Positions 2,629 to 48,271 of a stretch of DNA of 64,000 bases are shown one piece after another (positions within the stretch are counted from its first letter, which is position 1; every line of letters begins with the position of its first letter). The position numbers were made by a program, and so were the translations under genes. A model generated the notes under the pieces. It worked only from the letters and a program-made list of their open reading frames with translations, searched no databases and was not told where the DNA came from. The DNA comes from an uncultured Bacteroidales bacterium (GTDB lineage: Bacteria > Bacteroidota > Bacteroidia > Bacteroidales > Paludibacteraceae): the NCBI GenBank assembly GCA_902765485.1, contig CACWZZ010000016.1, forward strand, positions 41,991-105,990, written 5' to 3'.

Positions 2629-2649
2629 CGGCGAATTTTAACTATTATG

Positions 2650-2955: not shown

Positions 2956-2976
2956 ATGGGAAGAGATAATTGACAA

Positions 2977-29585: not shown

Positions 29586-29593
29586 CAAAGGTA
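29586..29593 (-). promoter_or_regulatory. -7 promoter box (TACCTTTG on minus strand)
   Basis: TAnnTTTG match ~165 nt upstream of the ATPase start (long leader). Confidence 0.5.
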
Positions 29594-29966
29594 CAACTTT
29601 TTTCTGAATTGCGCAATAGAGTGAGCAATTTTTATGTATTTTTGTGCAATTTAGTGTGCATTTTTGTTCCGATGGCTTATATCTTTCGAGTTCTAATTAC
29701 TTGATACTGTCTATAAATTGTGCCAATATACAGATTAGGACAGGACCATCACGGGACCATGGTCCGAGAACGATTTCAGAAAAGTACAATCAAAACAAAA
29801 GCGACGCGTATTCAGGCAACCTCCCAAATGTTTCCGATTATTAAGATATGGGCGTTATACCAAAGTCAGCCCAAAGGCAGCATAAGGTCTGCTGATAAAG
29901 GGGTATTTGAACCGACATTGGACCGAGATAGGAAGGTAATTGGTTCGGTAATGGATAACTAATCAC

Positions 29967-30242
29967 TAAGAATATACAAGAATAACTAACGGTTTATCCG
30001 CCAAACTTGGCGGATGCAATAAAAAAATAACATGGCAGAAATGGCAAAAGTGGCAAAAAAATGATATTGCACTATTTGCACTATTTGCACTTTGATGAGC
30101 GAAAGTGCAAAAAGTGCAGAAAGTGCAAGACAAAAAAAATATATGACCGGATTGACCGAATTGACCGTTTGGGGTGAAACGGTCAAAAAGGTCAAAACGG
30201 TCAGAAAAAAAATGAATGTCAGTTTTGCCAGTTTTGCCAGTC
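29967..30242. repeat. composite 9-mer word module, copy B (inverted relative to 2205-2500)
   Basis: Its reverse complement reproduces all six 9-mer blocks in the same order, with a different hairpin (29997-30014) at the homologous position. Confidence 0.85.
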
Positions 30243-30295
30243 AAAAATTATCCAAAATTGCCCAAAATTAGAATAATTCTGTTATCAGGAGCGCT

Positions 30296-30418
30296 GTCAA
30301 CAAATTTAGTACAACTGTAAACTCTTTTAGGAAAGTGTAAACAGATTCCAGAAAAGTGACAAGTAATTTAGTTAAAATAAGTAAAAAACTGTCAACACTA
30401 TTTAGGAAAAGTCAGTTG
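30296..30418. repeat. iteron-like ~20-bp repeat array, copy B (direct relative to 2121-2203)
   Basis: 82/83 identity to 2121-2203, plus a further unit sharing TATTTAGGAAAAGTCA with 2068-2083. Confidence 0.85.
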
Positions 30419-30419
30419 T

Positions 30420-30821
30420 TTACTTATACAATACAAATGTCATAGCCTCTTGTTCCGGCATAGCGGTTATCGTGATAGCTATCGAATTCTTCTCTGCATT
30501 ATAGATGCCGTGATAGATTTCCTCTCCGGCCATATTCGTACCGTTTGCAGCCTTGATACAGATATCTTTGCCCGTCATATCCCACACCAAAAGATCACGT
30601 TTGGTGGGCTCAGTTGCCGGCGGAACCAGACTTTCATAGGTACATTTGAAGTTGGTGTGAAACGTGAACTGGGTATAAGCTGTCTTCTCATTTTCGGTAA
30701 CGGTGCAGCGATAAGTGTGACCTGCGATCGGCTGTGTGGCAGGATCGGCCTTCTTCTCACACGAAGTGAAACCCATTGTTACAGCGCAAAGCGCCATCAT
30801 TGCTACTAAAAACTTTTTCAT
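30420..30821 (-). CDS. lipoprotein, unknown function (133 aa)
   Basis: Signal plus lipobox MGFTSC. Confidence 0.6.
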   Translation of the reverse strand: MKKFLVAMMALCAVTMGFTSCEKKADPATQPIAGHTYRCTVTENEKTAYTQFTFHTNFKCTYESLVPPATEPTKRDLLVWDMTGKDICIKAANGTNMAGEEIYHGIYNAEKNSIAITITAMPEQEAMTFVLYK

Positions 30822-30854
30822 AATGATTGTTGTTTTATAGAGTTAATAAATCGA

Positions 30855-31256
30855 TTATTCATTCGGATTTTTGAGATTCAAAGTCAACGGCTTGTTTTTC
30901 TCACCTGTCTTTACCTTGAGAGGTTCAAAAGCTAAGCAATCATCGTTGGCATCAAAAACAGCAAAGTAAACTGTGATCGTTTCGTCAGCACCCACACTGC
31001 TCGGTGCAAAATCATCCGGCGATTTGAGCTCGAAATGAGCTACGCCGGCTGCGTTGGTCTTGACGGGAGCGTCTTTGTAATTCTGCTTGTAATACCCACC
31101 TCCCATATCGCCGTGAGCTACTGCCTTATAAACCTCGACTCCAGCCTGAGTCTTGCCGTCCTTCATCACTGTGACATCTACAGTTGCTTCCGTCTTAAAG
31201 CAACTGGTCATTACTACGGCTACCAAAGCCGCCAAAAGAATTTGAAACTTTTTCAT
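30855..31256 (-). CDS. lipoprotein, unknown function (133 aa)
   Basis: MKKFQILLAALVAVVMTSC from the ATG at 31256; the longer ORF-track model runs over the promoter. Confidence 0.6.
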   Translation of the reverse strand: MKKFQILLAALVAVVMTSCFKTEATVDVTVMKDGKTQAGVEVYKAVAHGDMGGGYYKQNYKDAPVKTNAAGVAHFELKSPDDFAPSSVGADETITVYFAVFDANDDCLAFEPLKVKTGEKNKPLTLNLKNPNE

Positions 31257-34814: not shown

Positions 34815-36257
34815 TTATTTTATTTCCACCGGTTTATACCGTGGAACTAAAATCTTCATGACGCTCCAGCCGATCAGGTAAGCCACCGCGCAGATGCAGA
34901 ATACAATCATGTAAGCTGCCGGTTTGCCGGTGAAGCCTGCGAAAGCAAACGCGTCGCCTAATTGGGCTGCATGGTCGAAGAGCATACCCGAACCTTTGTT
35001 AATCAGGAACGAACCTACTCCGCCTGCCATCGCACCGATACCGGTGATTGTAGCGACAGCCGATTTCGGGAACATATCACCCGTGGTGGAGAAGATATTC
35101 GCGCTCCAGCTCTGGTGAGCGGCACCCACGATACCGATGATGATAGCTACTGCCCAAGGACCGTATATACCGCCTAACGGCTGTGCGAACAACGCGAAGA
35201 TCGGGAAGAACGCAAAGATCAGCATAGCACGCATACGACCTGCATACGGCTCCATGCCTTTCTTCTCTACGAAGATCTTAGGCAAGTATCCGCCGAACAG
35301 CGAAATCACTGTTACGATAGCGTACAGCGTGAAGATGAGCGCAATACCCTGCGGGTCGGAAGCCTTGATACCGAACTGGTCCTGGAAATAAGCCGGAGCC
35401 CAAAAGAGGAAGAACCACCAAACGCCGTCGGTCATGAACTTACCAAACGCAAACGACCAGGTCTGTTTGTGCTTGAAAGCCTCAGCGAAGCTCATCTGCT
35501 TCTCTTCCTTAGCCTCCTGCTTCGGAGCGTCTTTCTCGTCTTGGTGGATATACTCCAACTCTGCCTCATTCACATGCTTGCTCTCTTCCGGCTTGTCATA
35601 GACAAAGATCCAGACACCTGCCCAGAGGAAGCCCAGCGCACCGATGATGATGAACGCCCACTCCCAGCCCATGGACTTAGCCAGCAATGGAATAGTAGCC
35701 GGAGCAGCCAACGCACCTACAGACGCGCCTGCGTTGAACAGGGCGGTAGCGAACGCACGGTCTTTCTTCGGGAAATACTCAGCGGTCACTTTGATAGCTG
35801 CAGGGAAGTTACCCGCCTCACCAAGTCCCAAGATCAGACGGCAGGCAAGGAACAGCCATACACTCACCATGGATATTGAACTCACTATCGCACCGGTTGC
35901 ATTCAGCAAAGCAGCCTTGTCAGCAACACCTACGATCTGCTCGGTTACCCAACCGCACCCTGCGTGCATCACAGCGCCTAACGACCATACGATGATGGCA
36001 ATCAGGTAGCCCTTCTTCGTGCCCATCCAGTCGATGAACTTACCGGCAAAGAGGCAGAAGATAGCATACGCGATGGAGAACACACCGGTGATGGTTCCGT
36101 AGTCGGAGTCGGTCCAGTGGAACTCCGGCTGAATAAACTCTTTGAAGGTCAACGACAGAACCTGACGGTCCATGTAGTTAACCGTAGTGGCGAAGAAAAG
36201 CATCGCACACATGACCCAACGCCAGTTGGTCATGACAGCTTTTTTAACGTCATTCAT
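34815..36257 (-). CDS. MFS transporter (hexuronate-transporter-like by context)
   Basis: 12-TM MFS pattern, DRQVLS motif; follows kdgK-eda. Confidence 0.8.
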   Translation of the reverse strand: MNDVKKAVMTNWRWVMCAMLFFATTVNYMDRQVLSLTFKEFIQPEFHWTDSDYGTITGVFSIAYAIFCLFAGKFIDWMGTKKGYLIAIIVWSLGAVMHAGCGWVTEQIVGVADKAALLNATGAIVSSISMVSVWLFLACRLILGLGEAGNFPAAIKVTAEYFPKKDRAFATALFNAGASVGALAAPATIPLLAKSMGWEWAFIIIGALGFLWAGVWIFVYDKPEESKHVNEAELEYIHQDEKDAPKQEAKEEKQMSFAEAFKHKQTWSFAFGKFMTDGVWWFFLFWAPAYFQDQFGIKASDPQGIALIFTLYAIVTVISLFGGYLPKIFVEKKGMEPYAGRMRAMLIFAFFPIFALFAQPLGGIYGPWAVAIIIGIVGAAHQSWSANIFSTTGDMFPKSAVATITGIGAMAGGVGSFLINKGSGMLFDHAAQLGDAFAFAGFTGKPAAYMIVFCICAVAYLIGWSVMKILVPRYKPVEIK

Positions 36258-36275
36258 TCTTGTTTTTCATTAAAA

Positions 36276-36315
36276 GATTCGATATTTCGATAACTCGATT
36301 TCCCGATATATCGGA
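36276..36315. repeat. tandem 8-mer word array (NNNTCGAT x5) filling the eda-MFS spacer
   Basis: GATTCGAT ATTTCGAT AACTCGAT TTCCCGAT ATATCGGA. Confidence 0.8.
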
Positions 36316-36984
36316 TTATTTTTTACAATTAGCGATGATTTCAAAGCACTCTTTGCACTTTGCGGTTATGTAAGCCCAGTCGCCGGCTTTCACCTTGTCG
36401 CTCGGGAAGAGCTTGCTGCCCATGCCCACGCAGTAAACGCCTGCGGCGAACCATTTCTCCAGGTTCTCTTTCTCAGGAGCCACACCACCGGTAACCATGA
36501 TCTTTGACCATGGTATCGGAGCCATCAGACCTTTCACGAGGTTCGGTCCAACTACATCGCCCGGGAACACTTTCGTGAAGTCGCAACCAACCTCCTGAGC
36601 CGCACCGATCTCGCTCGGTGTGAGGCAGCCCGGACAGTAAGTCACGCAACGACGGTTGCAGACAACTGCGATATCTTTGTTGAACAGCGGACCAACTACG
36701 AAGTTAGCACCCAGTTGCAGATAGAGAGCAGCAGTCGGAGCATCTACAACGCTACCGATACCGAGTGCCAACTCCGGGCACTCTTTAGCCACCCACTTGC
36801 TCAACTCACCGAACACCTCGTGTGCGAAATCGCCGCGGTTGGTGAACTCGAAAGCGCGTACACCGCCCTCGTAGCAAGCCTTAATCACGTTCTTACAAAC
36901 TTCTACGTCCTTGTGATAGAACACAGGAACCATCGGTGCAGCGGCAATCTTCGCCATCACCTGAAATTTATCAAACTTTGCCAT
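36316..36984 (-). CDS. eda: KDPG / 4-hydroxy-2-oxoglutarate aldolase
   Basis: Eda-family length and motifs ([21 protein letters not shown]); pathway context. Confidence 0.85.
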
Positions 36985-37004
36985 AATTTTCCTTTCTTGT
37001 TAAA

Positions 37005-37045
37005 ACTTCGGTATATCGATTTATCGAAATATCGATATATCGGAT
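37005..37045. repeat. tandem 8-mer word array (TATCGANN x4-5) filling the kdgK-eda spacer
   Basis: TATCGATT TATCGAAA TATCGATA TATCGGAT. Confidence 0.8.
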
Positions 37046-38071
37046 TTATCTCTGAACACGACCATTCGCATTGCCTCCGGCAAGCGAGAGAACTTCGTCT
37101 TCAGAAACGAGGTTGTAGTCGCCGTTAATGGTGTGCTTCAGAGCCGAAGCAGCTACTGCGAACTCAAGAGCCGATGCCTGGTCGCCCGGATACTTGAGCA
37201 TACCGTGGATCAGACCGCCGGAGAACGAGTCACCACCACCTACGCGGTCGATGATCGGGTTGATCTCGTAACGCTTGGACTGGTAGAACTCCTTACCGTT
37301 GTAGATCATAGCCTTCCAGCCGTTGAAGGTAGCGCTGTAGCTCTCGCGCAGCGTCGAAACAACGTACTTGAAGCCGAACTCCTTCATCATCTGCTCGAAG
37401 ATGCCCTTGTAGCCCTCAGCGTTGGTCTCGCCGCCTTCTACATCTGCATCGGGCTTGAAACCGAGGCACAACTCTGCATCTTCCTCGTTGCCGATACAAA
37501 CATCCACATACTTCATCAACGGACGCATGATCGAGATAGCTTTCTCGCTGGTCCACAGTTTCTTACGGAAGTTCAGGTCAACGGAAACAGTTACACCGTG
37601 ACGTTTTGCAGCCTCGCAAGCCAATTTGGTGATCTCAGCAGCCTTGTCCGAGATAGCCGGAGTGATGCCGCTCCAGTGGAACCATGCTGCGCCTTCCATG
37701 ATCTTATCGAAGTCAAAGTCCTTTGGATCAGCCTCAGCGATAGCGCTGTGTGCACGGTCGTAAATCACTTTCGACGGACGCATCGAAGCACCGGTCTCAC
37801 AATAATACAGACCCACGCGGTCGCCGCCACGAACGATATAATCGTCTTTTACGCCATAACGACGCAGCGAGTTAACGGCAATCTGACCGATCTCGTGCTT
37901 CGGCAGTTTGGTTACCAGATAAGCCTCGTGGCCGTAGTTAGCGCACGAAATAGCCACGTTAGCCTCACCACCACCGGGAATAATTCTAAAGTGATCAGAC
38001 TGGATGAAACGGTCTTGTCCTTCAGGACTCAGGCGGAGCATAATCTCGCCCAACGTAATAATTTTAGCCAT
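37046..38071 (-). CDS. kdgK: 2-dehydro-3-deoxygluconokinase
   Basis: PfkB motifs GGGEANVA and VGGGDSFSGGLIHG. Confidence 0.85.
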   Translation of the reverse strand: MAKIITLGEIMLRLSPEGQDRFIQSDHFRIIPGGGEANVAISCANYGHEAYLVTKLPKHEIGQIAVNSLRRYGVKDDYIVRGGDRVGLYYCETGASMRPSKVIYDRAHSAIAEADPKDFDFDKIMEGAAWFHWSGITPAISDKAAEITKLACEAAKRHGVTVSVDLNFRKKLWTSEKAISIMRPLMKYVDVCIGNEEDAELCLGFKPDADVEGGETNAEGYKGIFEQMMKEFGFKYVVSTLRESYSATFNGWKAMIYNGKEFYQSKRYEINPIIDRVGGGDSFSGGLIHGMLKYPGDQASALEFAVAASALKHTINGDYNLVSEDEVLSLAGGNANGRVQR

Positions 38072-38173
38072 AGGTTAAATGAATTAAATTGGTTAATAAA
38101 TATTGTTAATTAGTTGTTGTTTGCTTTATTTGGTTTCGTTTGGTTTTCTGTTTTTATTTTTTGTGAGGATGAT

Positions 38174-38204
38174 TCTCCGTCTATTAGCCCCGAATTTTAT
38201 TCGG
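38174..38204. repeat. REP-like hairpin element, copy 1 (contains the stop codon of the Y1 gene)
   Basis: CTCCGTCTATTAGC + CCCGAAT-TTT-ATTCGGG. Confidence 0.7.
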
Positions 38205-39231
38205 GTTTGTTCAAAGCCTCGCATATTTCCTCTGCCATTTTATTCATCGCCACACACTCGGCTCTGGTCACATGCGGCTTGTCCGGATCATGCTGCCACG
38301 GCGATAGTATCAACATCCTTCCCTCTGCGACCGCCTCAAACAATCCCTCTGCAGGTTTGTAATACTCGCCAAATCCATTCTCCGCGATATAAATAATGGT
38401 ATGTTTCTCGCGCAGCAACACCTCCAATACCTCTTTCTCTTTCGGACTAATGAACGGCGACACCATCACAGTCCCTTTACGAGCCGCCAGCACACATCCG
38501 TTCATATACTCGCGTAGCCGTGTCGCGTCTCCATGCTGCTCAGCATCTTCCACCCAAATCCTCCGCACATGTACCGGCGAGAACTTCTCTGCCTGCAAAA
38601 TGCCTATATTCCCAATTCCGCTATATTTCTGTCCCGCTATCTCTATATCTCGCTGCACTCTGAAATATCCCGGCATCAACCTTTTCGTTGCTAACCTCTG
38701 CGGGTTCATCTGCACATAGCGGATCATCGTTTGTAGTTGTCCCTTGTGTGACATTGGACGCACAAACGGGCGCTCCGTGAAGATCGGAAATGGGAGGCCT
38801 CCATTCCCTTCTCTCGCATTATTTGCCATTCCCTCTCCGTCCATTAGCCCCGAATTTAATTCGGGATAAATCAACGGAGAATATGCCCGTCCTATTTTCT
38901 TAACGCCCTGCCACAAACTGCGGATTACATTATTTATACTTTGTGTCATCGGCTTGGTGACATAGTATATTACATGCAAGTGATCGGGCATCAAACAATG
39001 CTGTATTACCTTTATCTCCGGATAGTAATGATTGATGCGTAATGCTTCTTCTGTTATCCGGTCCCCAAGTTCTGTCCTTTCCACCGCCGCTTGTTTCGGA
39101 TCATTCTCCGGAATGACAAGCCTCCCCAACAAAGCCTCTCTGCTTGGCACAACCAGCGTAACATGGTAAATGCCGACACCTCTCCATGCCGTTCCCATTT
39201 CTTGCCATTTCCATGTCTCCTGTTCTGCCAT
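38197..39231 (-). CDS. RayT/IS200-like Y1 (HUH) transposase domain fused to a DprA/SLOG-like C-terminal domain
   Basis: HUH motif PDHLHVIYY; Y-motif IRYVQMNPQR. C-terminus aligns by eye to the DprA core (GNIGILQ, VHVRR, GTVMVSPF, TIIYIAENGF, GRMLILSP). Confidence 0.65.
   Translation of the reverse strand: MAEQETWKWQEMGTAWRGVGIYHVTLVVPSREALLGRLVIPENDPKQAAVERTELGDRITEEALRINHYYPEIKVIQHCLMPDHLHVIYYVTKPMTQSINNVIRSLWQGVKKIGRAYSPLIYPELNSGLMDGEGMANNAREGNGGLPFPIFTERPFVRPMSHKGQLQTMIRYVQMNPQRLATKRLMPGYFRVQRDIEIAGQKYSGIGNIGILQAEKFSPVHVRRIWVEDAEQHGDATRLREYMNGCVLAARKGTVMVSPFISPKEKEVLEVLLREKHTIIYIAENGFGEYYKPAEGLFEAVAEGRMLILSPWQHDPDKPHVTRAECVAMNKMAEEICEALNKPE
38835..38865. repeat. REP-like hairpin element, copy 2 (in-frame inside the Y1 gene)
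   Basis: CTCCGTCCATTAGC + CCCGAAT-TTA-ATTCGGG; encodes YPELNSGLMDGE. Confidence 0.7.
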
Positions 39232-39251
39232 TTTCTTTTAGTTTTCGAGTG

Positions 39252-39316
39252 GGGGTACAATTTGTACCCCTCGTCAATCTGTGCTTTTTTCTTAAGGTTG
39301 GGGACAAATTGTCCCC
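39252..39316. repeat. two related perfect palindromes upstream of the Y1 gene
   Basis: GGGGTACAA-T-TTGTACCCC (39252-39270) and GGGGACAA-A-TTGTCCCC (39300-39316). Confidence 0.8.
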
Positions 39317-39380
39317 TGGTCAGTTGGGTAGTAGTACTTAACCACTTCTGTTCCGTTTTTCATTGTTTTTTCTCTACTAC

Positions 39381-39455
39381 CGGCTTACGAGCGGCATACG
39401 AGACGGATACGAGACGATAACTATTAGCGATAACTTAGCGGTCTATCAGCCACTC
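39381..39455. repeat. degenerate 11-bp periodic array
   Basis: GGCTTACGAGC GGCATACGAGA CGGATACGAGA CGATAACTATT AGCGATAACTT AGCGGTCTATC. Confidence 0.55.
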
Positions 39456-39589
39456 TCGCGCCATTTCAATTTATCCTTATTTATGTTCAAACATATACCC
39501 CTCTATATAATAATCAAAATAAAGCCCAAATCTATCACCTCAAATGCAAGTTTTTAAGTTCTTTCATTGATTCTATACTATTCTGCCTA

Positions 39590-40855
39590 TTATTCGATTC
39601 TTCGCAAATAAGCATTGTTACTTTCTTTGAATATTTTGTTAATCTCATCATTTTCAAAGCCTATAATATTGAGCATGCAACATAATAAGATTTTTCTTAA
39701 TTTGTGATTTAAATAATATAATTCTATACCGTCTAAAACATTTTTCTTCTTTCCTGTTGGCAATAAATGTGAATAATGATGTCTTGAATCACAGATACAA
39801 TCTATGTCATGATCTGATAACTCTATAGCGGCAATGTCGGAAAACTTCTCTCTCAATTGAGTTAAAAGCTTTTTAAGACAAGGCTCGTCTTTTATGAAAC
39901 GATAGTAATAACCTTCCACCGCCTGAACCACTACCAGAAAATCCACGCTACTGAACACTCTGCGTCTACTCACACTATCTATCAAATGAGCACGAATTGG
40001 AAACAATTCCTTTTCTGCATACCATTTTTGTATTACCAAGGGAAACTTATCTTTTATAATGTCATACACAAATAAGTAATCCCAAAATCGTTCGCAATTA
40101 TTACTTCTTTCTTTCTCGCTGTCATCAAATATTTCTATAGTGTAGTTCTCTGTTGGATCTGTTTTTTTATCTTTATCAATAAGAAGCAACTTATCACATC
40201 GCACCGAAGTTAGAGTGGCAAAAGATAGAAATTGTTCGAAAAGAAAGACTTTCATATTTGCCTCACGAATCGAAACGGGGTTTGCGAATAAAAAGTTAAG
40301 TGAAGTCTTTTGCTCAAACTCAACTCGCATACCTGTTTTGCCAGTAGTAAAATTGGATTCTCCTGCAATTTTCAAATTACAACCTTCTTCTATCTGTACA
40401 ATTACATTATTTGCTTCTTTGATATCTGCACTACACGAATAACTTTGTTCGTTCCAATGCGCGTGCAGGCAATTCGGTTTAAACCAATATGTTAATTCGT
40501 CAATATATGCAGCAACATCGTAGTTACCTAATTCATTCAAAGACTTAATATGTTTCCCCACCGCAACGATTTGCCCTTTATATTCTGCAACAGCAAAAGG
40601 ACAACTTGTATTTACAGAAATAGACTCATAACAGTTAAATACACTTATTTTCTTCGATTCCGAAGAGACTCCCCAAATAACAGCATAATGAACACTATTT
40701 CTACTCACTAAATGATGTAAAGGATTGCTCTCGCCTAGAGCACCAATTGTCTCAAGGGTGATTTTCCCCTTTTCTACACTTAATGTCCCTGCTACTTGAT
40801 TGTCTGGCGCGTCAGGCAACCACCATAATCCTTTATAGTCGTTGGGCGTCTTCAT
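39590..40855 (-). CDS. ApeA-like protein: N-terminal ApeA-type beta-rich domain plus C-terminal HEPN (predicted RNase)
   Basis: N-terminus YKGLWWLPDAPDNQVAGTLSVEKGKITLETIG; C-terminal Rx4H motif DSRHHYSHL. Confidence 0.6.
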   Translation of the reverse strand: MKTPNDYKGLWWLPDAPDNQVAGTLSVEKGKITLETIGALGESNPLHHLVSRNSVHYAVIWGVSSESKKISVFNCYESISVNTSCPFAVAEYKGQIVAVGKHIKSLNELGNYDVAAYIDELTYWFKPNCLHAHWNEQSYSCSADIKEANNVIVQIEEGCNLKIAGESNFTTGKTGMRVEFEQKTSLNFLFANPVSIREANMKVFLFEQFLSFATLTSVRCDKLLLIDKDKKTDPTENYTIEIFDDSEKERSNNCERFWDYLFVYDIIKDKFPLVIQKWYAEKELFPIRAHLIDSVSRRRVFSSVDFLVVVQAVEGYYYRFIKDEPCLKKLLTQLREKFSDIAAIELSDHDIDCICDSRHHYSHLLPTGKKKNVLDGIELYYLNHKLRKILLCCMLNIIGFENDEINKIFKESNNAYLRRIE

Positions 40856-40955
40856 TAAACTTTATCAATTTTAACAAATCGTTTCCTTATACTTTCTGCA
40901 CATGTATTTAATTCTGATATATTTCGTTTATTTCATCTTTCAACGTGCTTTTAAT

Positions 40956-41750
40956 TTATACTTCTATTTTGTCAACTTTGAGCACCTTATTATACAATAT
41001 TGATTTCTTGAAATTTGCCGCCGGATATGCCTTCAAAATTCTTTCACGAATCAACTTTCTCTCGGCGTCGTATTTTGCTATCTCTATTTTAGAAGCGAGA
41101 TTTTCTTCAGACTTGTTTGCAGGATAATATGTAATGCGTTTTATCATATTAACATCAACCGGTACATTTAACACATTCTTATGTAGATTGTCATTGACTT
41201 TGCCAGGATTTCTAGGGATTATAAAAAATCTTACTTCATTTTCATATTTAAATGCATTTCTTTTTAATGACATAATCTTGATATACTGTTCCTCATTAAA
41301 ATTTTGGAAAAAATCTTGATAATGCGGACTAGATGTCGAATATAGATTGTCTATTTCAGCTTTTTTTAGATTATAATTTACTTTTGCTAGATATACATCA
41401 CACTCCTTTTCTTCTGCAAAAGAAAGTAAACTAGAGATAAAAACTTCTGTTTGAATTACAAGACGTAGCAAGGGGTCGTTATCCCTTTTGTATATTTTCC
41501 AAGAGGCTTCTTCATTTTGCAGATCCATTCTGGCGCAAAAACAATAGATCGTAGGCTGTCTATATCCATTTAACCCAGTGTAATCTGTGTTTAGATATTT
41601 GATCTCATATGGATCATACCAGAGCTCAGGAGAAACAAAACCAATTTGATGTGGCTCTTGTTCTAATATATTCAGTACACGACTTGTACATATATATTTA
41701 TATATGTATGCCGGAACTTTAGGTAAATCAATTAATTTTATCTCTTTCAT
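40956..41750 (-). CDS. DUF2971-like protein
   Basis: IYKYICTSRVLNILEQ..., FVSPELWYDPYE (cf. FNDPFE) and YENEVRFFI motifs. Confidence 0.6.
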   Translation of the reverse strand: MKEIKLIDLPKVPAYIYKYICTSRVLNILEQEPHQIGFVSPELWYDPYEIKYLNTDYTGLNGYRQPTIYCFCARMDLQNEEASWKIYKRDNDPLLRLVIQTEVFISSLLSFAEEKECDVYLAKVNYNLKKAEIDNLYSTSSPHYQDFFQNFNEEQYIKIMSLKRNAFKYENEVRFFIIPRNPGKVNDNLHKNVLNVPVDVNMIKRITYYPANKSEENLASKIEIAKYDAERKLIRERILKAYPAANFKKSILYNKVLKVDKIEV

Positions 41751-41859
41751 ATATATTAAGTTTTTAAGTGTCCTTATATCTTCTCCCTCTCATCCGTCTG
41801 TCTTCCATTAGTCTCCATCGGATGCTCATCGGGTGCTCACTATGACGACGCCGTAACAT

Positions 41860-42182
41860 CTACGGCACGATACCCTGCTTTCTCTTCTCGCTCAACTCAT
41901 GTTTGATATAATCGTACAGCCTCCCTTGTATAGGCTTGTTATATTTCCTTGCCTTCCGCACAGCCTCCTCATATCGTGCCTGCCATTCCGCCTTACGCAC
42001 CTCAGCTCAGCAAAAGCTTTTGCCGTTGGGTGTTCTGCTTTTGCTTTCTTTGTTTTCTTGCTCAACTCCGGCTTCGCGCACACGGCTGCCCATTCCCCGT
42101 TTCCGGGTATCCGCCGTGCATAATGTCTCTGATCCACATTTCCCTGCAAACTATCCACTATATTCACCCACTTCGCTTTCAT
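41860..42182 (-). pseudogene. small conserved-looking gene disrupted by a 5-bp tandem duplication
   Basis: GCTGAGCTGAGG at ~42005-42016 on the coding strand. Removing one GCTGA joins MKAKWVNIVD...AKAFAE to VRKAEWQARYEEAVRKARKYNKPIQGRLYDYIKHELSEKRKQGIVP*. Confidence 0.55.
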
Positions 42183-42193
42183 TTGATTTTCTT

Positions 42194-42784
42194 TTACTCA
42201 AAAAATGTTATGCTATTCATGTAATTCTCATATAACCCTTCTTTTAATTCTAAAATGGAAGGAGACAACTTTTTCACTATTTCTAAGTCATAATTCTTAT
42301 CTACATTTCCGCTTGATTCTAATATTTTATCTATAGCTCGATCAATATCTTCTCTTCCGAGAGATCTGCTTTTCTCCTTAAATGTTAATACTCTTTCCGT
42401 CTTAATCTTTTCTCCAGAAGTATCAAATATATCATACCCGTTTTGAAAAGGGTGTGCAGCACTATCCCTCCGATATATTATATAAATGCATTCATCATCT
42501 GAAAGTGTATCGCATATTTTGTTAAGACATGTAGTTACTTTTAATATATATTTATCCTTACCGAACTTTTGGGATATTTCTTCACTTTTCATTTTTAATA
42601 ATTCAGCAAGTTTAATATAAAATAATTGCTGATACCATCTATCATAGTTGCTACTTAAAGCCTCCGTTACACAAACAAAGTCTAATATCCATTGAATAAA
42701 CAAAAACCTTTCTGTAGGAATCTTACTCGCAACTTGATACTCTTTACCATAGTATATTTCTTCTATAGTTTTTCCTTTAACCAT
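42194..42784 (-). CDS. 196-aa protein with a HEPN-like Rx4H motif
   Basis: IYRRDSAAHPF in a mostly helical-looking protein, AbiV-like size; motif-level evidence only. Confidence 0.4.
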   Translation of the reverse strand: MVKGKTIEEIYYGKEYQVASKIPTERFLFIQWILDFVCVTEALSSNYDRWYQQLFYIKLAELLKMKSEEISQKFGKDKYILKVTTCLNKICDTLSDDECIYIIYRRDSAAHPFQNGYDIFDTSGEKIKTERVLTFKEKSRSLGREDIDRAIDKILESSGNVDKNYDLEIVKKLSPSILELKEGLYENYMNSITFFE

Positions 42785-42799
42785 TTTAACAAACCTTTA

Positions 42800-44704
42800 T
42801 TACACCTTTCTCTTATTGTTTCTTGATTTTTTGAGTATAGAATATCTCATATCTTCCGTTTTTTGCAGAACTCCATTCTTTACTAGATTTGACAAAATTG
42901 TTCTAATACTTTTTTCAGAACTATTGGGACGCAGTATAAGAGCTTTCTTGTAAATTTCTTCTCGTGCTATAGGTTCTTTCTCTTGTTTTAGTACTTCTAT
43001 TACTGCATCTTGAAGAGTACCTTTAAACTGTAATGATTCTTCTATTACATACAGAGATGTCCTTCCTATTGGCTTCAAACGGTTATCTTTACATACGTAG
43101 GTACGTATTTGCTTGCTATTTGAGAATGGATATTGCGGATATTCTTGTTTAAACGCAGCAAACATTTCTTCTATAGAAACAGGTTTGTCTTGTGCTTTAA
43201 CATATTCATACAGAAATTGACGAACATTAACTTTTTCTCCACTTTCCAAATCGCTATACCTTGAATCATCTGAATCTGATATGTTATACAACTTTTTTAA
43301 TAGATAGCCTAAGAACTCTTTTACATCCGGAACGAACTCATGTATTACACCATCTTGCCACAATGAGTTTTTAAAACAGAATCTTTTCCAATCTATGGCG
43401 AAATTTATACCCTTCTTTTCTATTTCTTTTCCTATTTGATATAAAGCTGTATAATAATCAAATTTTGTTAAGACAGAATTACATACAAAGAAGAAAGGAG
43501 TATTATAGTGTATTTCTCCACTTTCTTGATAAGATTGATGAAGCGTAACTATACTATTAGCATCAAGATATAATTCAGAAAAACAAAGTTCTGGATTGAG
43601 TAATCTACATAATATACAGAATCCGTCATACTCATATTGCAACTTTTCTTTTACCGCCAATTTCTCAAATTGTGTATTACTTTCTGTAAAAAAAGAGTTA
43701 TTTAAAAACGGGTAATAGTCCAACACTTCTTGCTTTGTGGTTTCTAACAAGTCATATATGCATGTGTCTAATTTGCAAAAAGTCTGGCGTAACAATTTGT
43801 TGACATATACAGGTAATTTATGAAGTTTGTCTCCTATTTCAGCAACTGACATAGGAGAAGAATAAAACCCAAAATATGAGTAGAATATGTCTAATGCACG
43901 TGGCGTAAAGAACATGAGTAGTATTTTTTCCAATACGAAGAAAACAGGAATTATACCATGTTCCTTTTTATATTTAAAAATAAATTCTATATCGTTAGAA
44001 TTCAGTAGGAAATAATATTTTATAAAAGAAGGGATTTGGTTATCTTCTAATGTAAGAATAAATTCCAACCTTTCAATAAACAATTTCTGAATTCTATACT
44101 CAGGTGAATTCTCTTTGCGAACATCTGTTATTATTGCGTAAATATTGGAATAATATTTCTCTATTCTTTCCAACTCTTTACCTCTTAAATTTTGAACATA
44201 TATATAATGATACAAATTTTTCTCTAGTACATCATCTAGTTGGTCTCCATATTTAGCCTTAATTTTGCATAGTAGAACCTTTTTATTTGCGAGGCTTTCA
44301 CAATTACGAATAAAACGTTCAATCAAATCCCTTGAACGCGGAGCAATTTCATAAGTATTATAAGCTGAAATTAATTGATTATAAGTTCTAATGGAATATT
44401 TTTTCAAAAAAGTCTGGACAGATGATGCCGATGTTCCCTCTATAACTGCTTCATCTAAAAAATATTCCCTGTATTCATTAATATTATCAATAGATAATGG
44501 ATAATTGACAACAATATTTTCCATAAACTCTATTATCTCTGTAGCGGTTTGTTTCCCACAATTAGTAGCAGAAAATATAGTTTCCTTGCTTGTCAAATAA
44601 ACAAGCGTGCAAAAAGCATTATCTAGTTTTAATAATTCAAGAACATTTTTTGCACGAGTAGATAACTGCTTAAATTTTGCTATGTAATATTGCTGCAATG
44701 TCAT
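42800..44704 (-). CDS. 634-aa multi-HTH protein: alpha-CTD-like HhH, sigma-70 region-4-like HTH, two HARE-HTH-like winged helices
   Basis: LSTRAKNVLELL...NCGKQTATEI; RALDIFYSYFGFYSSPMSVAEIGDKLHKLPVYVNKLLRQTFCKL; VSIEEMFAAFKQEYP...; PIAREEIYKKALILRPNSSEKSIRTILSNLVKNGVL. Confidence 0.5.
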   Translation of the reverse strand: MTLQQYYIAKFKQLSTRAKNVLELLKLDNAFCTLVYLTSKETIFSATNCGKQTATEIIEFMENIVVNYPLSIDNINEYREYFLDEAVIEGTSASSVQTFLKKYSIRTYNQLISAYNTYEIAPRSRDLIERFIRNCESLANKKVLLCKIKAKYGDQLDDVLEKNLYHYIYVQNLRGKELERIEKYYSNIYAIITDVRKENSPEYRIQKLFIERLEFILTLEDNQIPSFIKYYFLLNSNDIEFIFKYKKEHGIIPVFFVLEKILLMFFTPRALDIFYSYFGFYSSPMSVAEIGDKLHKLPVYVNKLLRQTFCKLDTCIYDLLETTKQEVLDYYPFLNNSFFTESNTQFEKLAVKEKLQYEYDGFCILCRLLNPELCFSELYLDANSIVTLHQSYQESGEIHYNTPFFFVCNSVLTKFDYYTALYQIGKEIEKKGINFAIDWKRFCFKNSLWQDGVIHEFVPDVKEFLGYLLKKLYNISDSDDSRYSDLESGEKVNVRQFLYEYVKAQDKPVSIEEMFAAFKQEYPQYPFSNSKQIRTYVCKDNRLKPIGRTSLYVIEESLQFKGTLQDAVIEVLKQEKEPIAREEIYKKALILRPNSSEKSIRTILSNLVKNGVLQKTEDMRYSILKKSRNNKRKV

Positions 44705-44904
44705 AAATAGACTTGTAAATCTTTATTTTCTTCAATAATTATTCCTTTCTTCTCTCGTTCTCTCAATACCTCCATCCACAACTCAATCTGTCGTGCGGTG
44801 GTTGTGGTTCTTTTGACAATATCCTTTTCAGTTCCTCCATATCCGGCATGGTCTTGTCGGTTACAACCGCTAAATCTTGATTGTGGCACTATCTGCAATT
44901 GCAA
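44701..44904 (-). CDS. small ORF (67 aa) translationally coupled to the 634-aa gene
   Basis: ATGA overlap at 44701-44704; no motif recognised; true start may be internal. Confidence 0.3.
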   Translation of the reverse strand: MQLQIVPQSRFSGCNRQDHAGYGGTEKDIVKRTTTTARQIELWMEVLREREKKGIIIEENKDLQVYL

Positions 44905-44921
44905 TTGTCGGTCCTTTTTTT

Positions 44922-44949
44922 AGATTTTCCAATCGCGATAGGAAAATCT
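44922..44949. promoter_or_regulatory. 28-bp near-perfect palindrome, candidate operator of the island's first gene
   Basis: AGATTTTCC-A-ATCGCGAT-A-GGAAAATCT, 18 nt upstream of the 67-aa ORF. Confidence 0.4.
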
Positions 44950-45010
44950 ATACTCAAAATATTTATTCAGATCTGCCATAAATAACGTGCAAATCTACAC
45001 GTTAACCACT

Positions 45011-45045
45011 CCCCGCTCACCCCTCGTTTTGAGAGGCAAGCGGGG
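45011..45045 (-). terminator. nested GC-rich stem-loop after uxaC
   Basis: CCCCGCT...AGCGGGG with inner CCTC-GTTTT-GAGG; resembles the in-CDS hairpin family. Confidence 0.45.
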
Positions 45046-45057
45046 ATGCGTAGTCAT

Positions 45058-46476
45058 TTAGAACTTGAAGTAGTTCTTCGCGTTGTTGTAGCAGATGTCT
45101 TCGACCATCTGTTGAACGCGGGCTTTCTCATAACCGGTGTACGGGATCATACCGTTCTCGATGTCGTTACCGAGGACGTTACAGAGTGTGCGGCGGAAGT
45201 ACTCGTGACGCGGGTAGCTCAGGAACGAACGGCTGTCGGTCAGCATACCTACCATGCGGCTCAAGAGACCGAGGTTACTCAAAGCCATCATCTGCTTCTC
45301 CATACCGTCCTTCTGATCGAGGAACCACCAGCCCGAACCGAACTGAATCTTACCAGGAACGGAACCGTCCTGGAAGTTACCCAACATAGTGGCAATCACT
45401 TCGTTTGCGCACGGGTTGAGGTTGTAGAGAATGGTCTTTGCGAGGTGTCCTTCGCTGTTCATCTCGTCGAGGAAATGGCTCATCGCTTTTGCGGTTGTGA
45501 ACTCGCCGATGGAGTCGAAACCGGTGTCTGCGCCGAGTTGAGCGAACATCTTGGAGTTATTGTTACGGATAGCGCCGTAGTGGTATTGCTGGGTCCAACC
45601 TGAAGCGTAGTCCATCTCAGCCTGCGCGTGCAGGTAAGCGTGCTTGTACTGGCGGATCTCATAAACGCTCAACTCCTTGCCGGCGAGAGCTTTCCGGAAG
45701 ATCTCATTGATCTCTGCGTCGGTGTACGGCTCGTCGTAGAACTCCTCGATACCGTGGTCGGAGAGACGGCAACCCATCGACTCAAAGAAGTCATGGCGTT
45801 TCTGGAGAGCGTCCACCATGTCCGCAAAGTTGCGAATCTCAACACCGGCAACCTTAGCCAGTTTCTCGATATAGGCTTTCCAAGTAGCGGCTTCGATGTT
45901 CATACCTGCGTCCGGACGCCAAGTCGGCAACATACGTACCTCTGCGGTCGGGTCTTCTTTCACCATCTTGTGCCACTCGAGGCTGTCAGCCGGGTCGTCA
46001 GTCGTGCAGACAAGTTCTACATGGTAGTGCTTCATCAGTCCGCGCGGACAGAACTTCGGGTCGTTGGCAATCAGGTCGTTACACTTGTCATAGATAGCGC
46101 GTGCAGTCTCCGGGTTCAAACGCTCCTCGATACCGAAAGCGGTCTTGAGCTCCAGATGGGTCCAGTGGTACAACGGGTTGCGGAAAGTGTACGGAACGGT
46201 CTCCGCCCATTTCTCGAACTTCTCCCAGTCGGTAGTATCCTTGCCGGTACAGAAACGCTCGTCCACACCGTTGGAACGCATAGCGCGCCATTTGTAGTGG
46301 TCGCCCATGAGCCAGATCTGTGCAATCGACTCAAAACGTTTGTTTTCGGCAACCATCTGGGGAATAAGGTGACAGTGATAATCGATAATCGGCATCTTAG
46401 CAGCATGCTCGTGATACAGTTCCTGCGCGGTCTCTGTCTGCAGCAGGAAGTCTTTGTCCATGAAAGGCTTGATCAT
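45058..46476 (-). CDS. uxaC: glucuronate isomerase
   Basis: Full-length UxaC pattern (MPIIDYHCHL, NPLYHWTHLEL, SRSFLSYPRHEYFRR). Confidence 0.9.
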   Translation of the reverse strand: MIKPFMDKDFLLQTETAQELYHEHAAKMPIIDYHCHLIPQMVAENKRFESIAQIWLMGDHYKWRAMRSNGVDERFCTGKDTTDWEKFEKWAETVPYTFRNPLYHWTHLELKTAFGIEERLNPETARAIYDKCNDLIANDPKFCPRGLMKHYHVELVCTTDDPADSLEWHKMVKEDPTAEVRMLPTWRPDAGMNIEAATWKAYIEKLAKVAGVEIRNFADMVDALQKRHDFFESMGCRLSDHGIEEFYDEPYTDAEINEIFRKALAGKELSVYEIRQYKHAYLHAQAEMDYASGWTQQYHYGAIRNNNSKMFAQLGADTGFDSIGEFTTAKAMSHFLDEMNSEGHLAKTILYNLNPCANEVIATMLGNFQDGSVPGKIQFGSGWWFLDQKDGMEKQMMALSNLGLLSRMVGMLTDSRSFLSYPRHEYFRRTLCNVLGNDIENGMIPYTGYEKARVQQMVEDICYNNAKNYFKF

Positions 46477-46547
46477 AATTGTTAGATTTTATTATGTTAA
46501 ATGATGTTGTTTTTCGCTCCTTTATGCCTTGCATAAAATTACGGCTG

Positions 46548-46555
46548 CAAAGGTA
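46548..46555 (-). promoter_or_regulatory. -7 promoter box (TACCTTTG on minus strand)
   Basis: TAnnTTTG match 72 nt upstream of uxaC. Confidence 0.55.
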
Positions 46556-46609
46556 CTACTTTTTTTGCAAACAAATGTGGAAAAATTGACATAAAAATTA
46601 CACATTCTC

Positions 46610-48181
46610 TCAACTCTCCGTTACGGAAGTGTGTTGACCTTTATAATGACGCTGCAATTCGGTTAATTCTTCCTCCGGTTTATATTCCTTGTACCCGCAT
46701 TCAGGGCAGTAGTAATTGCGATGGTACAACCGGACATGGTATAGCACGGAGTAGTCGGCATACTGAGTGGTCGTACGGCTATGATTGCGTTCGTCCTCGC
46801 GCCTATGCGTAGTAGAACCGTCGCTCCATTTGGTCGTCACATCCGTCCATGTCTTCCACCGCTCGGTATGCGAACTGATGGCTTTGGACTCCGGACGCCA
46901 TTCGTCGTACTCGCGCTGGAACGTACGGCTGTGGAACTCTATCGTCTCCATCCGTTTGCAATCCGGGCAGCGGGTATGCGGAGCTGTTGACAGCATACGG
47001 ACGGAATACAGATAAGCGCAATATCCGGCAAACGGAATCACCGGCAGGAAGAGCCACAGACATCCCCATACCGCCATCAGCGCAGTCCAGATATAAGTTG
47101 CCACAACTGCTACAACAGCAAAGAGAATCGCTACTATATTATCCGGCAGATGATAATACGTGAACCGCCAATAGAGCGCCGCCTCCATGAGCAAAGTCAC
47201 CAATGTAAAGCCCACGAAGATCCATATCAGACCCAATACGATCCAAAAGAAAAGCCCCACATAGGAGAGAATCGGAATATCGCCCCATTCGATCTCTGCT
47301 TTCGCACTATAATTCTCATCGTCGCCGTGAATCCAGTCATAACGCATCGAGCTCTCAATCATAGCAGCGAAGAAATCCACATCTACGATAGTCCCCAGCA
47401 GCGGCATCCATTTGACTATCCAGCGATTATTGCCTTTGGCATGGCTGTCCTCAAACGCATAAGTGACCGCCACGCTGTCGGCTCCGTAAACCACCATCGG
47501 ATTGCGGAACTTGCCATCCGAATCAATGACCTCGATATTCGGATAATACGCCAGAAAACCTTTCTTGGTCTTGTCTATCAGCCATGCCGGACGATAGCGC
47601 GCGTCGTTCTCCGCCAACTTATGACCGATATAGAGCCGCTCGAATTTGGCTTTGGTCATATAGTAATCGCCTTTCTTATCCAGCCGCTTTTTGCTCAGGC
47701 TGTCCGGCAGCACAGGACGCACCTCGTCCAGATGTACTTTCTTCTTCTCCCCGCGCGCGTTAACTATATTATAATATAAGGTGCCTTTTGCGCCCTTTTT
47801 CTTGCCCTTCTCGCGGAAGAGGCTCTTCACTTGCACCGGCTGACTGTCGCTTCCGTTCTCCATCATCATCGGGAAACCCATCTCCGCCGCAGCCAGCAGT
47901 CCGCGTTCGCCCTCTTTCGTTTGCACCAACAGACCATACGGATGATGTCTCGTTCCGGCTACGACTCCCAGATAATCAACCGTATCACCTTTCTTAATCT
48001 TGCCGATCGTCTCGTCATCGCCGGCAATCATAGATACCAGCGGCACGTTGCGGTCCACCACTATTTTCATGGGTTTATCCGGAAAACTCTTGTTTAGTAA
48101 AATACGCTGTCCGATGAAGATAACAGACAACACAACAATACCTGCGATTGTTGCAGCTTGGGGTAGTTTAAAGCGTTTCAT
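46610..48181 (-). CDS. membrane protein with C-terminal zinc-ribbon pairs, unknown function
   Basis: Start at MKRFKLPQAATIAGIVVLSVIF; central TM block; CPDC...CPEC. Confidence 0.55.
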   Translation of the reverse strand: MKRFKLPQAATIAGIVVLSVIFIGQRILLNKSFPDKPMKIVVDRNVPLVSMIAGDDETIGKIKKGDTVDYLGVVAGTRHHPYGLLVQTKEGERGLLAAAEMGFPMMMENGSDSQPVQVKSLFREKGKKKGAKGTLYYNIVNARGEKKKVHLDEVRPVLPDSLSKKRLDKKGDYYMTKAKFERLYIGHKLAENDARYRPAWLIDKTKKGFLAYYPNIEVIDSDGKFRNPMVVYGADSVAVTYAFEDSHAKGNNRWIVKWMPLLGTIVDVDFFAAMIESSMRYDWIHGDDENYSAKAEIEWGDIPILSYVGLFFWIVLGLIWIFVGFTLVTLLMEAALYWRFTYYHLPDNIVAILFAVVAVVATYIWTALMAVWGCLWLFLPVIPFAGYCAYLYSVRMLSTAPHTRCPDCKRMETIEFHSRTFQREYDEWRPESKAISSHTERWKTWTDVTTKWSDGSTTHRREDERNHSRTTTQYADYSVLYHVRLYHRNYYCPECGYKEYKPEEELTELQRHYKGQHTSVTES

Positions 48182-48206
48182 GTGAGATAAGAATTTAAAT
48201 TTTGGG

Positions 48207-48214
48207 CAAAAGTA
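48207..48214 (-). promoter_or_regulatory. -7 promoter box (TACTTTTG on minus strand)
   Basis: 26 nt upstream of the 48181 start. Confidence 0.5.
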
Positions 48215-48246
48215 GTAAAAAATTTTGATATGTGCAATTTTTTTAG

Positions 48247-48254
48247 TATCTTTG
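48247..48254 (+). promoter_or_regulatory. -7 promoter box (TATCTTTG)
   Basis: 18 nt upstream of the 48272 start. Confidence 0.55.
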
Positions 48255-48271
48255 CGCTCGATTTTCACAAA

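Follow-up and report, generated by a model that had tools for sequence, protein, structure and literature searches.

How does a hexuronate operon remain expressed after it has been split by 7 kb of foreign DNA, and what is the DNA that splits it? The question is raised by a stretch of 64,000 nucleotides (nt) from an uncultured Bacteroidales bacterium of the Paludibacteraceae (contig CACWZZ010000016.1, positions 41,991 to 105,990), here called the window and numbered from its first letter. The genes uxaC, kdgK, eda and an MFS transporter gene, which together serve the hexuronate pathway, lie in it side by side, except that uxaC is separated from kdgK by an AT-rich block of accessory genes. Read in the direction of transcription, the block holds p634, p196, the remnant of a gene for a protein of 117 amino acids (aa), p264 and an ApeA homologue, and it is followed by a RayT-like gene. 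We conclude that the region is probably one allele of a strain-variable accessory hotspot, mostly of defence genes and composite in its making, in an uncultured rumen Paludibacteraceae-like Bacteroidales lineage. Earlier, a reading made from the letters of the window alone (the sequence-only reading) had proposed a defence island of six open reading frames (ORFs) at this place. Loci from related genomes are designated by L numbers.

An Insertion Between uxaC and kdgK

The gap between uxaC and kdgK measures 7021 bp in the window. In a survey that started from a UxaC search with one genome per species and then located kdgK in each locus, the gap was 19-220 bp in L004, L005, L008, L014, L017, L034, L057, L058, L061, L078 and L079, eleven loci that span several Bacteroidales groups and include the near relatives L004 (UxaC 96% identity, gap 210 bp) and L005 (95%, 41 bp). 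Because a short gap is found in many Bacteroidales, the 7.0-kb gap is an insertion, in agreement with the earlier proposal that the operon had been interrupted. The ancestral state was a contiguous uxaC-kdgK-eda-MFS cluster, which was later filled by foreign, AT-rich, co-directional genes in this lineage. An independent assembly of the same island, L001, is 99.78% identical over 13.9 kb and repeats the arrangement; the window is therefore unlikely to be chimeric.

The composition of the block changes abruptly at its borders, as the sequence-only reading had judged by eye and as the GC values confirm. In sliding windows of 500 bp, the GC content is 0.29-0.36 across 39250-44750 and 0.47-0.55 (about 52%) in the flanks, and a local bump of 0.40-0.45 stands inside the block at 41500-42250. 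The GC content at third codon positions (GC3) is 0.24 in p634, 0.24 in p196, 0.27 in p264 and 0.31 in the ApeA gene, against 0.71 in uxaC, 0.62 in kdgK, 0.61 in eda and 0.66 in the MFS gene, with intermediate values for the remnant of the 117-aa gene (0.53) and the RayT-like gene (0.54). Every listed ORF of the block is on the minus strand, in the same direction as uxaC and kdgK. The six ORFs counted in the sequence-only reading thus all exist and are co-directional, but they come down to four intact genes, one pseudogene and one ORF that is probably spurious.

Variable Cargo Between Fixed Core Genes

Genomes whose UxaC is 94-100% identical carry alternative cargo at the same junction. The gap holds RhuM/Fic, LRR_5 and a 115-aa gene in L002; RhuM/Fic, a lipoprotein, a decayed p196 with an internal deletion and a 115-aa gene in L086; a membrane protein and a YhcG/DUF1016 nuclease in L003; and YhcG, an Mrr fragment and a RayT-like gene in L026. 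Further alternative cargo is found in L100, L101, L104, L107, L113, L115 and L117. Since different genes occupy the same gap in genomes with near-identical UxaC, the site is a strain-variable hotspot. The two features by which a defence hotspot is recognized, variable content between conserved flanks and empty sites in relatives, are both present at this junction, and the ORFs of the block do not recur in all relatives.

Integration hotspots that lie between conserved core genes and hold defence islands are of a known kind. The present locus resembles them in its variable cargo between fixed core genes, its empty sites, its foreign composition and its mixture of known and unknown defence genes. 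It differs from them in having no integrase, tRNA or prophage, in lying inside an operon and in its strictly co-directional cargo; furthermore, the 117-aa gene closes the run, a RayT-like gene often follows it, and the same anchor is found at six or more sites. Known or candidate defence families in the cargo of the window are ApeA and PDC-S31. Among 58 cargo ORFs of related islands, the raw counts were 7 for RhuM (PDC-S05), 5 for Fic, 3 for YhcG, 3 for GIY-YIG and 2 for Mrr, and GmrSD, AbiH, HNH and NA-iREase were further families. The label of defence island is thus upheld by ApeA and by the defence-type families at the same site in relatives, but p264 is a candidate only, and p196 and p634 have no PADLOC match. 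Seen in this way, the locus yields an ApeA of divergent sequence, a candidate of the PDC-S31 class and an uncharacterized, rare gene pair from a poorly studied rumen lineage, which is useful but ordinary.

ApeA and p264

The gene at 39590-40855 (minus strand) encodes a full-length protein of 421 aa with an ApeA_NTD1 region and an Apea-type HEPN domain. ApeA_NTD1 (PF18862) is matched at E 1.3e-34 with 120 bits (cut-off 25.5) over residues 7-278 and along the full profile, HEPN_Apea (PF18739) is matched at E 7e-12 with 46 bits (cut-off 24.4) in the C-terminal part, and the PADLOC matches are PDC-S58 and Cas13-ApeA (1e-17). The Rx4H motif is intact (R358-HHYS-H363). Judged by these domains, the product is unambiguously a member of the ApeA family. 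It is like the known ApeA system in having both defining domains in the right order, the Rx4H motif and a single gene among defence-type genes, and unlike it in being very divergent from the characterized proteins, with no usable match among PDB chain sequences, and in its rumen Bacteroidales host.

Gao et al. (2020) are reported to have given the first demonstration that ApeA is a defence gene. Characterized ApeA is an anti-phage, abortive-infection HEPN RNase and a ligand-activated oligomer, which cuts tRNA anticodon loops and is triggered when deoxydinucleotides from host-DNA degradation bind to a regulatory pocket (bioRxiv 10.64898/2026.01.26.701840). Its mechanism is also treated in a second study (bioRxiv 10.64898/2026.03.20.713152), and the family was named in a survey of HEPN proteins (Anantharaman et al., 2013; PMC3710099). 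By analogy with these homologues, the ApeA of the window would act as an abortive-infection HEPN RNase that cleaves tRNA anticodons on binding small-molecule products of infection.

The second defence-type gene, p264 (40956-41750, minus strand), is a candidate of the PADLOC class PDC-S31. It fits the PDC-S31 model PDLC04993 almost end to end (E 4e-22, 76.7 bits, profile positions 9-236 of 245) and DUF2971 weakly (PF11185, E 0.033, 16 bits, below the cut-off of 22), the latter match being the C-terminal motif ENEVR. The PDC systems are candidates found through 'guilt by embedding' (bioRxiv 10.1101/2024.01.29.577857); the name PDC-S31 is not mentioned in the full texts of the literature searched. 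The DUF2971 protein Aristaios protects lactococci and has a predicted ADP-ribosyltransferase-like fold (PMC11381338). By the same comparison, p264 would be a second, independent single-gene candidate and may be an ADP-ribosyltransferase-like toxin, as has been proposed for Aristaios. The BLASTP comparison of p264 with the DUF2971 protein of L085 was not significant, though both match PDC-S31 models. PDC-S31 is defined as a single gene, whereas its member in the window lies near p634, and those in L085 (E 1e-15) and L089 (E 1e-62) lie next to a p634 relative. This recurrent closeness may reflect cooperation or mere co-residence in islands.

The p634 and p196 Pair

The protein p634 (634 aa, 42800-44704, minus strand) belongs to a family with multiple helix-turn-helix (HTH) domains and matches Pfam DUF7669 at E 1e-5. 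It appears to consist of an N-terminal module of ~220 aa, a central region and C-terminal tandem winged-helix domains of the DUF7669/HARE-HTH-like type, and the N-terminal ~220 residues are also found fused to LRR_5 in the protein P0003. Close homologues make up 3 clusters among 5.8 billion, and an exhaustive HMMER search gave 269 remote relatives, which align mostly to residues 230-615. Sixty relatives carry RNA_pol_A_CTD in 32 cases and Sigma70_r4 in 14, with a few instances of HARE-HTH, DUF7669 or HA. No enzymatic domain was found in p634 or in these 60 relatives, and p634 has no PADLOC match. The AlphaFold2 (AF2) model of p634, made from a 3-sequence alignment, is unusable (pLDDT 53).

The gene of p196 (196 aa, 42194-42784, minus strand) starts 15 nt after the stop codon of p634 and ends 11 nt before the start codon of the 117-aa gene. 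Its product is helical, with a confident AF2 model (pLDDT 82) of helices and a beta-hairpin. Among the 5.8 billion clusters it has 9 homologues, and in their alignment, which goes down to 36% identity, the residues Y104-R105-R106-x3-A110-H111 are invariant; they include an Rx4H motif, R106-DSAA-H111. Neither p634 nor p196 has relatives in the JGI metagenome contigs or among the 2.9 million viral contigs of IMG/VR.

The company of p196 is varied but always of the candidate-defence kind. Its homologues directly follow p634-type proteins in the window, L001 and L088, a T5orf172/MUG113 protein of 656-657 aa in L083 and L087, and the two-gene candidate PDC-M24A/B in L084. By BLASTP and hhalign, p634 has no homology to the T5orf172/MUG113 protein of L083; p196 therefore pairs with unrelated large proteins. 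Such neighbourhoods are typical of conflict systems and make a modest case for a defence role of p634, p196 and p264. As a two-gene candidate system, p634 would be a sensor or regulator facing nucleic acids or RNA polymerase, and p196 would be the effector, acting through its invariant Arg/His pair. On a smaller reading, p634 and p196, perhaps together with PDC-S31, would form a new defence system on a new effector fold.

Three further neighbourhoods were noted among these relatives. In L083 (7668-11466, from a Paludibacteraceae metagenome-assembled genome), at a site after aroA, the 657-aa T5orf172/MUG113 protein is followed by a p196 homologue of 63% identity and then by a protein with a 23S_rRNA_IVP domain and a Top1-type zinc ribbon; this locus has no 117-aa gene. 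In L180 (1307-7409) and L181 (400-7161), remote p634 relatives stand last or in the middle of tightly overlapping operons, with a GHKL (HATPase_c_3) ATPase in L180 and, in L181, a single protein with DUF723 and RNase_T, a RayT-like gene lying two genes upstream. These operons are possibly further uncharacterized conflict systems that share the multi-HTH component.

The sequence-only reading had credited two ORFs of the block with HEPN Rx4H signatures. Both motifs are present, and ApeA is an established HEPN protein, but p196 has no support from fold or profile. Its Pfam search gave no match even at E 10, PADLOC gave none, and its profile found nothing relevant among PDB sequences. With Foldseek, the best match in the PDB was OspC at E 0.12 (AbiV, 9bj7, came at E 1.4), and the best in BFVD had E 0.35. 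A HEPN assignment of p196 was rejected on these searches, all of them negative, and the label is therefore a guess at the level of the motif. In the canonical HEPN fold the motif is normally at the N-terminus of a helix, and in p196 it closes, at the C-terminal end, the helix predicted for residues 96-110.

These results for p196 weigh against a defence hotspot, and so do several others. With 3 clusters for p634 and 9 for p196, both proteins are very rare, so the statistics of co-occurrence are thin. Experimental support exists at the family level for ApeA alone among the cargo genes. The cargo of related islands also includes lipoproteins, peptidases and transglutaminase-like genes; the hotspot is therefore not purely defensive. 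No integrase or recombinase ORF was seen in the block or the related loci, and no terminal repeats or target-site duplication bounding the island could be defined, its short repeats being at chance level apart from a REP-like unit. The RayT-like protein scores below the cut-off of 80 against NCBIfam REP_Tyr_transpos (NF047646, E 6e-4, 19.8 bits) and below threshold against Pfam Y1_Tnp (E 0.12), and promoters and terminators around the island are assigned from motifs alone.

A first rival would see here a hotspot of regulatory genes, genes for surface proteins and selfish addiction modules, none of them serving phage defence, in which ApeA and its neighbours would persist as toxin-like selfish genes or be decaying. 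It would account for the lipoproteins, peptidases, LRR and Sel1 proteins of related islands, for the frequent pseudogenes (in the window that of the 117-aa gene, in L086 the decayed p196 and in L026 the fragment of Mrr) and for a p634 made of DNA-binding-type domains only. It is nonetheless improbable, for the ApeA of the window is full length with its catalytic motif intact, p196 and p264 keep invariant residues among homologues down to 36-38% identity, and RhuM/PDC-S05, GmrSD, Mrr, AbiH and YhcG recur in the raw counts of related cargo. A hotspot composed mostly of defence genes remains the preferred reading.

Assembly of the Allele from Separate Units

Comparison of alleles shows where the units of the block meet. 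In the alignment with L002, the homologous sequence extends from uxaC past two hairpins as far as 44979, returns at 42184-41798 and returns again from 38137, just upstream of kdgK. The middle stretch is the higher-GC 117-aa gene with its 3' flank, which is common to L002 down to ~41798. Against L088, the segment 44759-42154, comprising p634, p196 and the start of the 117-aa gene, is 92% identical in nucleotides, and a different, GC-rich host gene lies upstream of it; the p634-p196-117-aa gene segment is therefore a unit present at two host sites. Against L113, the window is contiguous over 42185-40924 (the 117-aa gene and p264, the latter 93% identical in aa) and then divergent until 38137, with RhuM in L113 where the window has the ApeA gene and the RayT-like gene. 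In the window, the ApeA segment stands between p264 and the RayT-like gene. By these alignments, the allele was built from separately moving units, one being p634-p196-117-aa gene, with p264 joined to the 117-aa gene both here and in L113. The division of the island into two cassettes by a higher-GC, frameshifted gene, which had been proposed from the window alone, is borne out by all three comparisons, the two parts having been acquired separately.

Between the uxaC hairpins and the p634 unit lies a site-specific flank (44760-44983, minus strand), which contains a palindrome with 15-nt arms at 44921-44950 and the 5' two-thirds of the ORF o67. The latter (44701-44904, minus strand, TTG start) straddles the left junction of the p634 unit, is absent from L088 and has no homologue outside L001; it is probably a spurious ORF.

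The 117-aa Gene at This and Other Host Sites

The gene that divides the block (41860-42182, minus strand, GC 0.49) is a pseudogene of a basic 117-aa protein, frameshifted by a deletion of ~31 bp. The intact ORF is present in L001, L002 and L086, so that the frameshifted gene of the sequence-only reading is real, and on this comparison the gene has evidently decayed since in this strain. The family comprises 222 clusters and is strongly conserved, with no Pfam model. Eighty further loci of the family were fetched, among which a clade of at least 77% identity is linked to islands. In this clade the 117-aa gene closes a run of 1-6 low-GC, co-directional ORFs, high-GC host genes follow downstream, and the ORF immediately upstream has a GC content of 0.32-0.43 in 13 of 14 informative loci. 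More distant members of the family instead have a TTTG...TAnnTTTG promoter of their own.

Runs closed in this way are found at no fewer than six host sites, of which three lie within operons: uxaC|kdgK, murE|mraY in a cell-wall cluster, formiminotransferase|urocanase (FTCD) in a histidine-utilisation cluster, aroA|dsbD-like, gdh|PPDK-like and peptidase C69|Bro-N. Cargo genes that are unrelated to one another end 0-14 nt ahead of the ATG of the 117-aa gene, and homology between alleles starts exactly at that ATG. Cargo is shared together with the 117-aa gene between different host sites: a membrane protein (L003 and L090), YhcG (L003 and L118) and p634-p196 (the window and L088). Short fragments of the gene's 5' end, 14-60 nt long, are also found at cassette junctions in L003, L026, L090, L102/L103 and L140; they lie on both sides of YhcG in L003, before the RayT-like gene in L026, before RhuM/Fic in L090 and before a REP-like unit in L102 and L103. 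Judged from these loci, the 117-aa gene does more than divide the block: islands of this kind at several host sites have it as their conserved anchor. The wider pattern is one of foreign genes placed co-directionally in the middle of catabolic and cell-wall operons, without an integrase, and closed by the 117-aa gene.

The 5' end of the gene was also considered as a recombination site. In the island-linked clade only, the entropy of synonymous codons is 0.42-0.58 bits over codons 1-20 and 0.75-0.91 bits over the rest of the gene, which is suggestive, since the sequences are related. No hairpin of the attC-like kind was found at this 5' end (z -1.1), and no conserved motif was seen at the left end of the cassettes. 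Cargo would turn over by recombination at the conserved 5' end, possibly aided by the RayT-like HUH enzyme and REP-like hairpins.

Two of the other islands have a notable content. The murE-mraY island of L090 (744-6354; also in L091-L099) contains a 285-aa membrane protein, RhuM/Fic, a 163-aa protein, GmrSD_N, a 267-aa protein and a REP unit before the 117-aa gene. In L118 (5899-10336), the island between formiminotransferase-cyclodeaminase and urocanase is made up of four low-GC genes, one of which is AbiH-like or YhcG.

The RayT-Like Gene and the REP-Like Units

The RayT-like gene (38197-39231, minus strand) encodes a Y1 HUH protein of 344 aa with an extra conserved C-terminal domain of ~160 aa. 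Across 6 relatives, the most distant at 26% identity, the motifs MPDH(L/F/A)H (MPxHxH) and Yx3NPxR do not vary, and the HUH and Tyr motifs of Y1 transposases are thus present, as expected from the earlier notice of a transposase beside the island. The family profile reaches the HUH region of the ISDra2 TnpA structure 2xm3 at E 0.05, and the protein itself gave no usable match among PDB sequences. RayT-like genes also occur in L026, L101, L104, L130, L133, L146 and L181. In L101, L104, L130 and L133 the gene directly follows the 117-aa gene, whereas in the window p264 and the ApeA gene stand between the two.

Short repeats surround the gene. Just upstream, at 39252-39317, stand GGGGTACAAATTGTACCCC and GGGGACAAATTGTCCCC, a pair of palindromes (2 matches, where chance would give 0.03). 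A REP-like unit of 41 nt with the hairpin CCCGAATAAAATTCGGGG overlaps the stop codon (38174-38214), and an in-frame REP-like insert at 38834-38874 (minus strand) encodes PELNSG. The unit of the window lineage, CCCGAATTnAATTCGGGG, is inserted where a variable loop separates the HUH motif from the Tyr motif. It is also found upstream of the 117-aa genes of L090, L102 and L103 at the murE|mraY site, and the RayT-like gene of L101 has two in-frame inserts (8722-8800; the unit also at 9520). In-frame copies were likewise noted in the RayT-like genes of L105 and L106, and units recur just outside each gene; in L181 (248-460 and inside 400-1410), a different repeat encodes SELTLLQxDVL.

The gene resembles the RAYT/REP (REPtron, REPIN) and IS200/IS605 Y1 systems (PMC3333891, PMC8266576, PMC3116915) in its HUH and catalytic-Tyr motifs and in the short palindromic repeats that flank it and recur nearby, the genomic extent seen being 64 kb. 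It differs from them in scoring below the Pfam and NCBIfam thresholds, in the C-terminal domain, in the in-frame REP-like units and in its linkage to the 117-aa gene and cargo. No link between RAYT/HUH enzymes and defence islands, the 117-aa gene or cargo runs was found in the literature searched.

A second rival starts from this gene: the whole 7 kb would have arrived at once, as a hairpin-bounded transposon of the IS200/IS605-like or REPtron type driven by the RayT-like Y1 protein. A hairpin does stand at the uxaC end, and REP-like ones are found both at the kdgK end and in the surroundings of the RayT-like gene, whose HUH and Tyr motifs have been conserved. The strictly co-directional insertion also fits, strict co-orientation being expected from strand-specific transposition of single-stranded DNA (ssDNA) as in IS608/ISDra2. 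This origin is nevertheless very improbable. The unit p634-p196-117-aa gene stands at another site in L088 without the rest, and in L113 RhuM comes after the 117-aa gene and p264; the RayT-like gene of L026 and L101 is accompanied by neither ApeA nor p264, and L002 and L086 lack the RayT-like gene. The hairpin at the uxaC side is common to alleles with different cargo, no repeat is common to both ends, no ends of a RayT-linked element are definable, and so far the 7-kb unit is consistently absent as a unit elsewhere.

With the composite hotspot as the preferred reading, a dedicated mechanism may still be considered for it: the 117-aa gene, the RayT-like HUH enzyme and the REP-like hairpins could form a platform for cassette capture that needs no integrase. 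We regard this as doubtful, if a little less so than the two rivals above. Such a platform would follow an integron-like logic, HUH-based or by homologous recombination, and would place foreign, promoter-poor genes co-directionally inside host operons of rumen Bacteroidales. The islands are like integron cassette arrays in their short foreign genes, which are tightly packed in one orientation and leave hardly any untranslated DNA at 5' or 3' ends, in the repeated sequence at cassette junctions and in a fixed platform gene at one end. They are unlike integrons in that neither the block nor the related loci have IntI, attC hairpins or a family of inverted repeats at gene ends, that the sequence repeated at junctions comes from a protein gene, as its 5' coding end, that the candidate enzyme is an HUH Y1 protein and that the platform occurs at several sites. 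Should a dedicated mechanism prove true, Bacteroidota would have a new way of capturing genes, and the 117-aa gene would serve as a simple marker when gut and rumen metagenomes are mined for accessory and defence genes.

The weakest rival, a prophage or integrative-element remnant whose AT-rich genes are phage moron or superinfection-exclusion genes, is hardly credible: small, AT-rich, co-directional genes and the RhuM/Fic and Bro-N of related islands speak for it, but no structural, replication or integrase gene is found here or in any related locus, an Rfam scan at E 0.1 (Rfam alone) found no tRNA, riboswitch or other known non-coding RNA in 36000-48000, and p634 and p196 have no viral-contig relatives and the p196 fold no BFVD match.

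Expression of the Split Operon

The preferred reading of a composite insertion returns us to the host genes. Upstream of the island is the full-length glucuronate isomerase gene uxaC (45058-46476; Pfam UxaC, E 1e-199), and downstream are a kdgK-like PfkB kinase gene (37046-38071; Pfam PfkB), eda (36316-36984; NCBIfam KDPG/KHG aldolase, E 2e-110) and the MFS transporter gene (34815-36257; NCBIfam MFS families). All are on the minus strand, and the family matches support the gene identities that the sequence-only reading had given to this one-strand cluster.

That reading had also assigned one obvious shared promoter to the cluster. The motif upstream of uxaC, TACCTTTG at 46548-46555 (minus strand), is a genuine TAnnTTTG match with TTTG upstream of it and a promoter-like -7 motif, but its sole use for all the genes is doubtful in view of a hairpin after uxaC and of a second promoter-like site. 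The hairpin is a strong stem-loop with a 16-bp stem directly after the uxaC stop codon (45010-45046, minus strand), and the RNA fold of the 101 nt at 44960-45060 has -49.1 kcal/mol and z -7.8. A second, small hairpin containing TAGATTTG follows at 44984-45003 (minus strand). The stem-loop is common to the occupied sites L002 and L026 and, more loosely, L003, and it is absent from L005, where the whole gap is 41 bp.

The second site, TTTG-N19-TATGTTTG at 39518-39488 (minus strand), is of the Bacteroidetes type at the level of its motifs (sequence and TAnnTTTG scan). It lies downstream of ApeA and 257 nt upstream of the ATG of the RayT-like gene. The scan found no TAnnTTTG in the 125 bp before kdgK, and a scan for sigma-70-type promoters and terminators was uninformative for Bacteroidota. 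From these motifs, kdgK-eda-MFS is probably transcribed at least partly from 39518-39488 and not solely by read-through from the uxaC promoter.

Other Regions of the Window

A 552-aa gene upstream of uxaC (46610-48268) has no Pfam or NCBIfam match and is conserved with the locus in L001 and L002; its product has predicted membrane-spanning stretches and Cys-rich CPxC-type motifs near the C-terminus. The first 3000 nt of the window (1-3000) are a low-GC block (0.37-0.39) with a 217-aa ORF and a 282-aa ORF of leucine-rich-repeat-like sequence, which may be a further accessory region cut by the window edge. Low-GC intergenic stretches at 2242-2541 and 29966-30244 have a common repeat, which translates as SANSANSA(M/I)SFFCHFCHFCHV, and the palindrome CCCCGAATCCGATTCGGGG lies near 2445-2463, inside the first of them. 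Finally, a 392-aa ORF with a P-loop motif (GTRGVGKTT) at 28241-29419 adjoins a low-GC stretch at 29500-31000.

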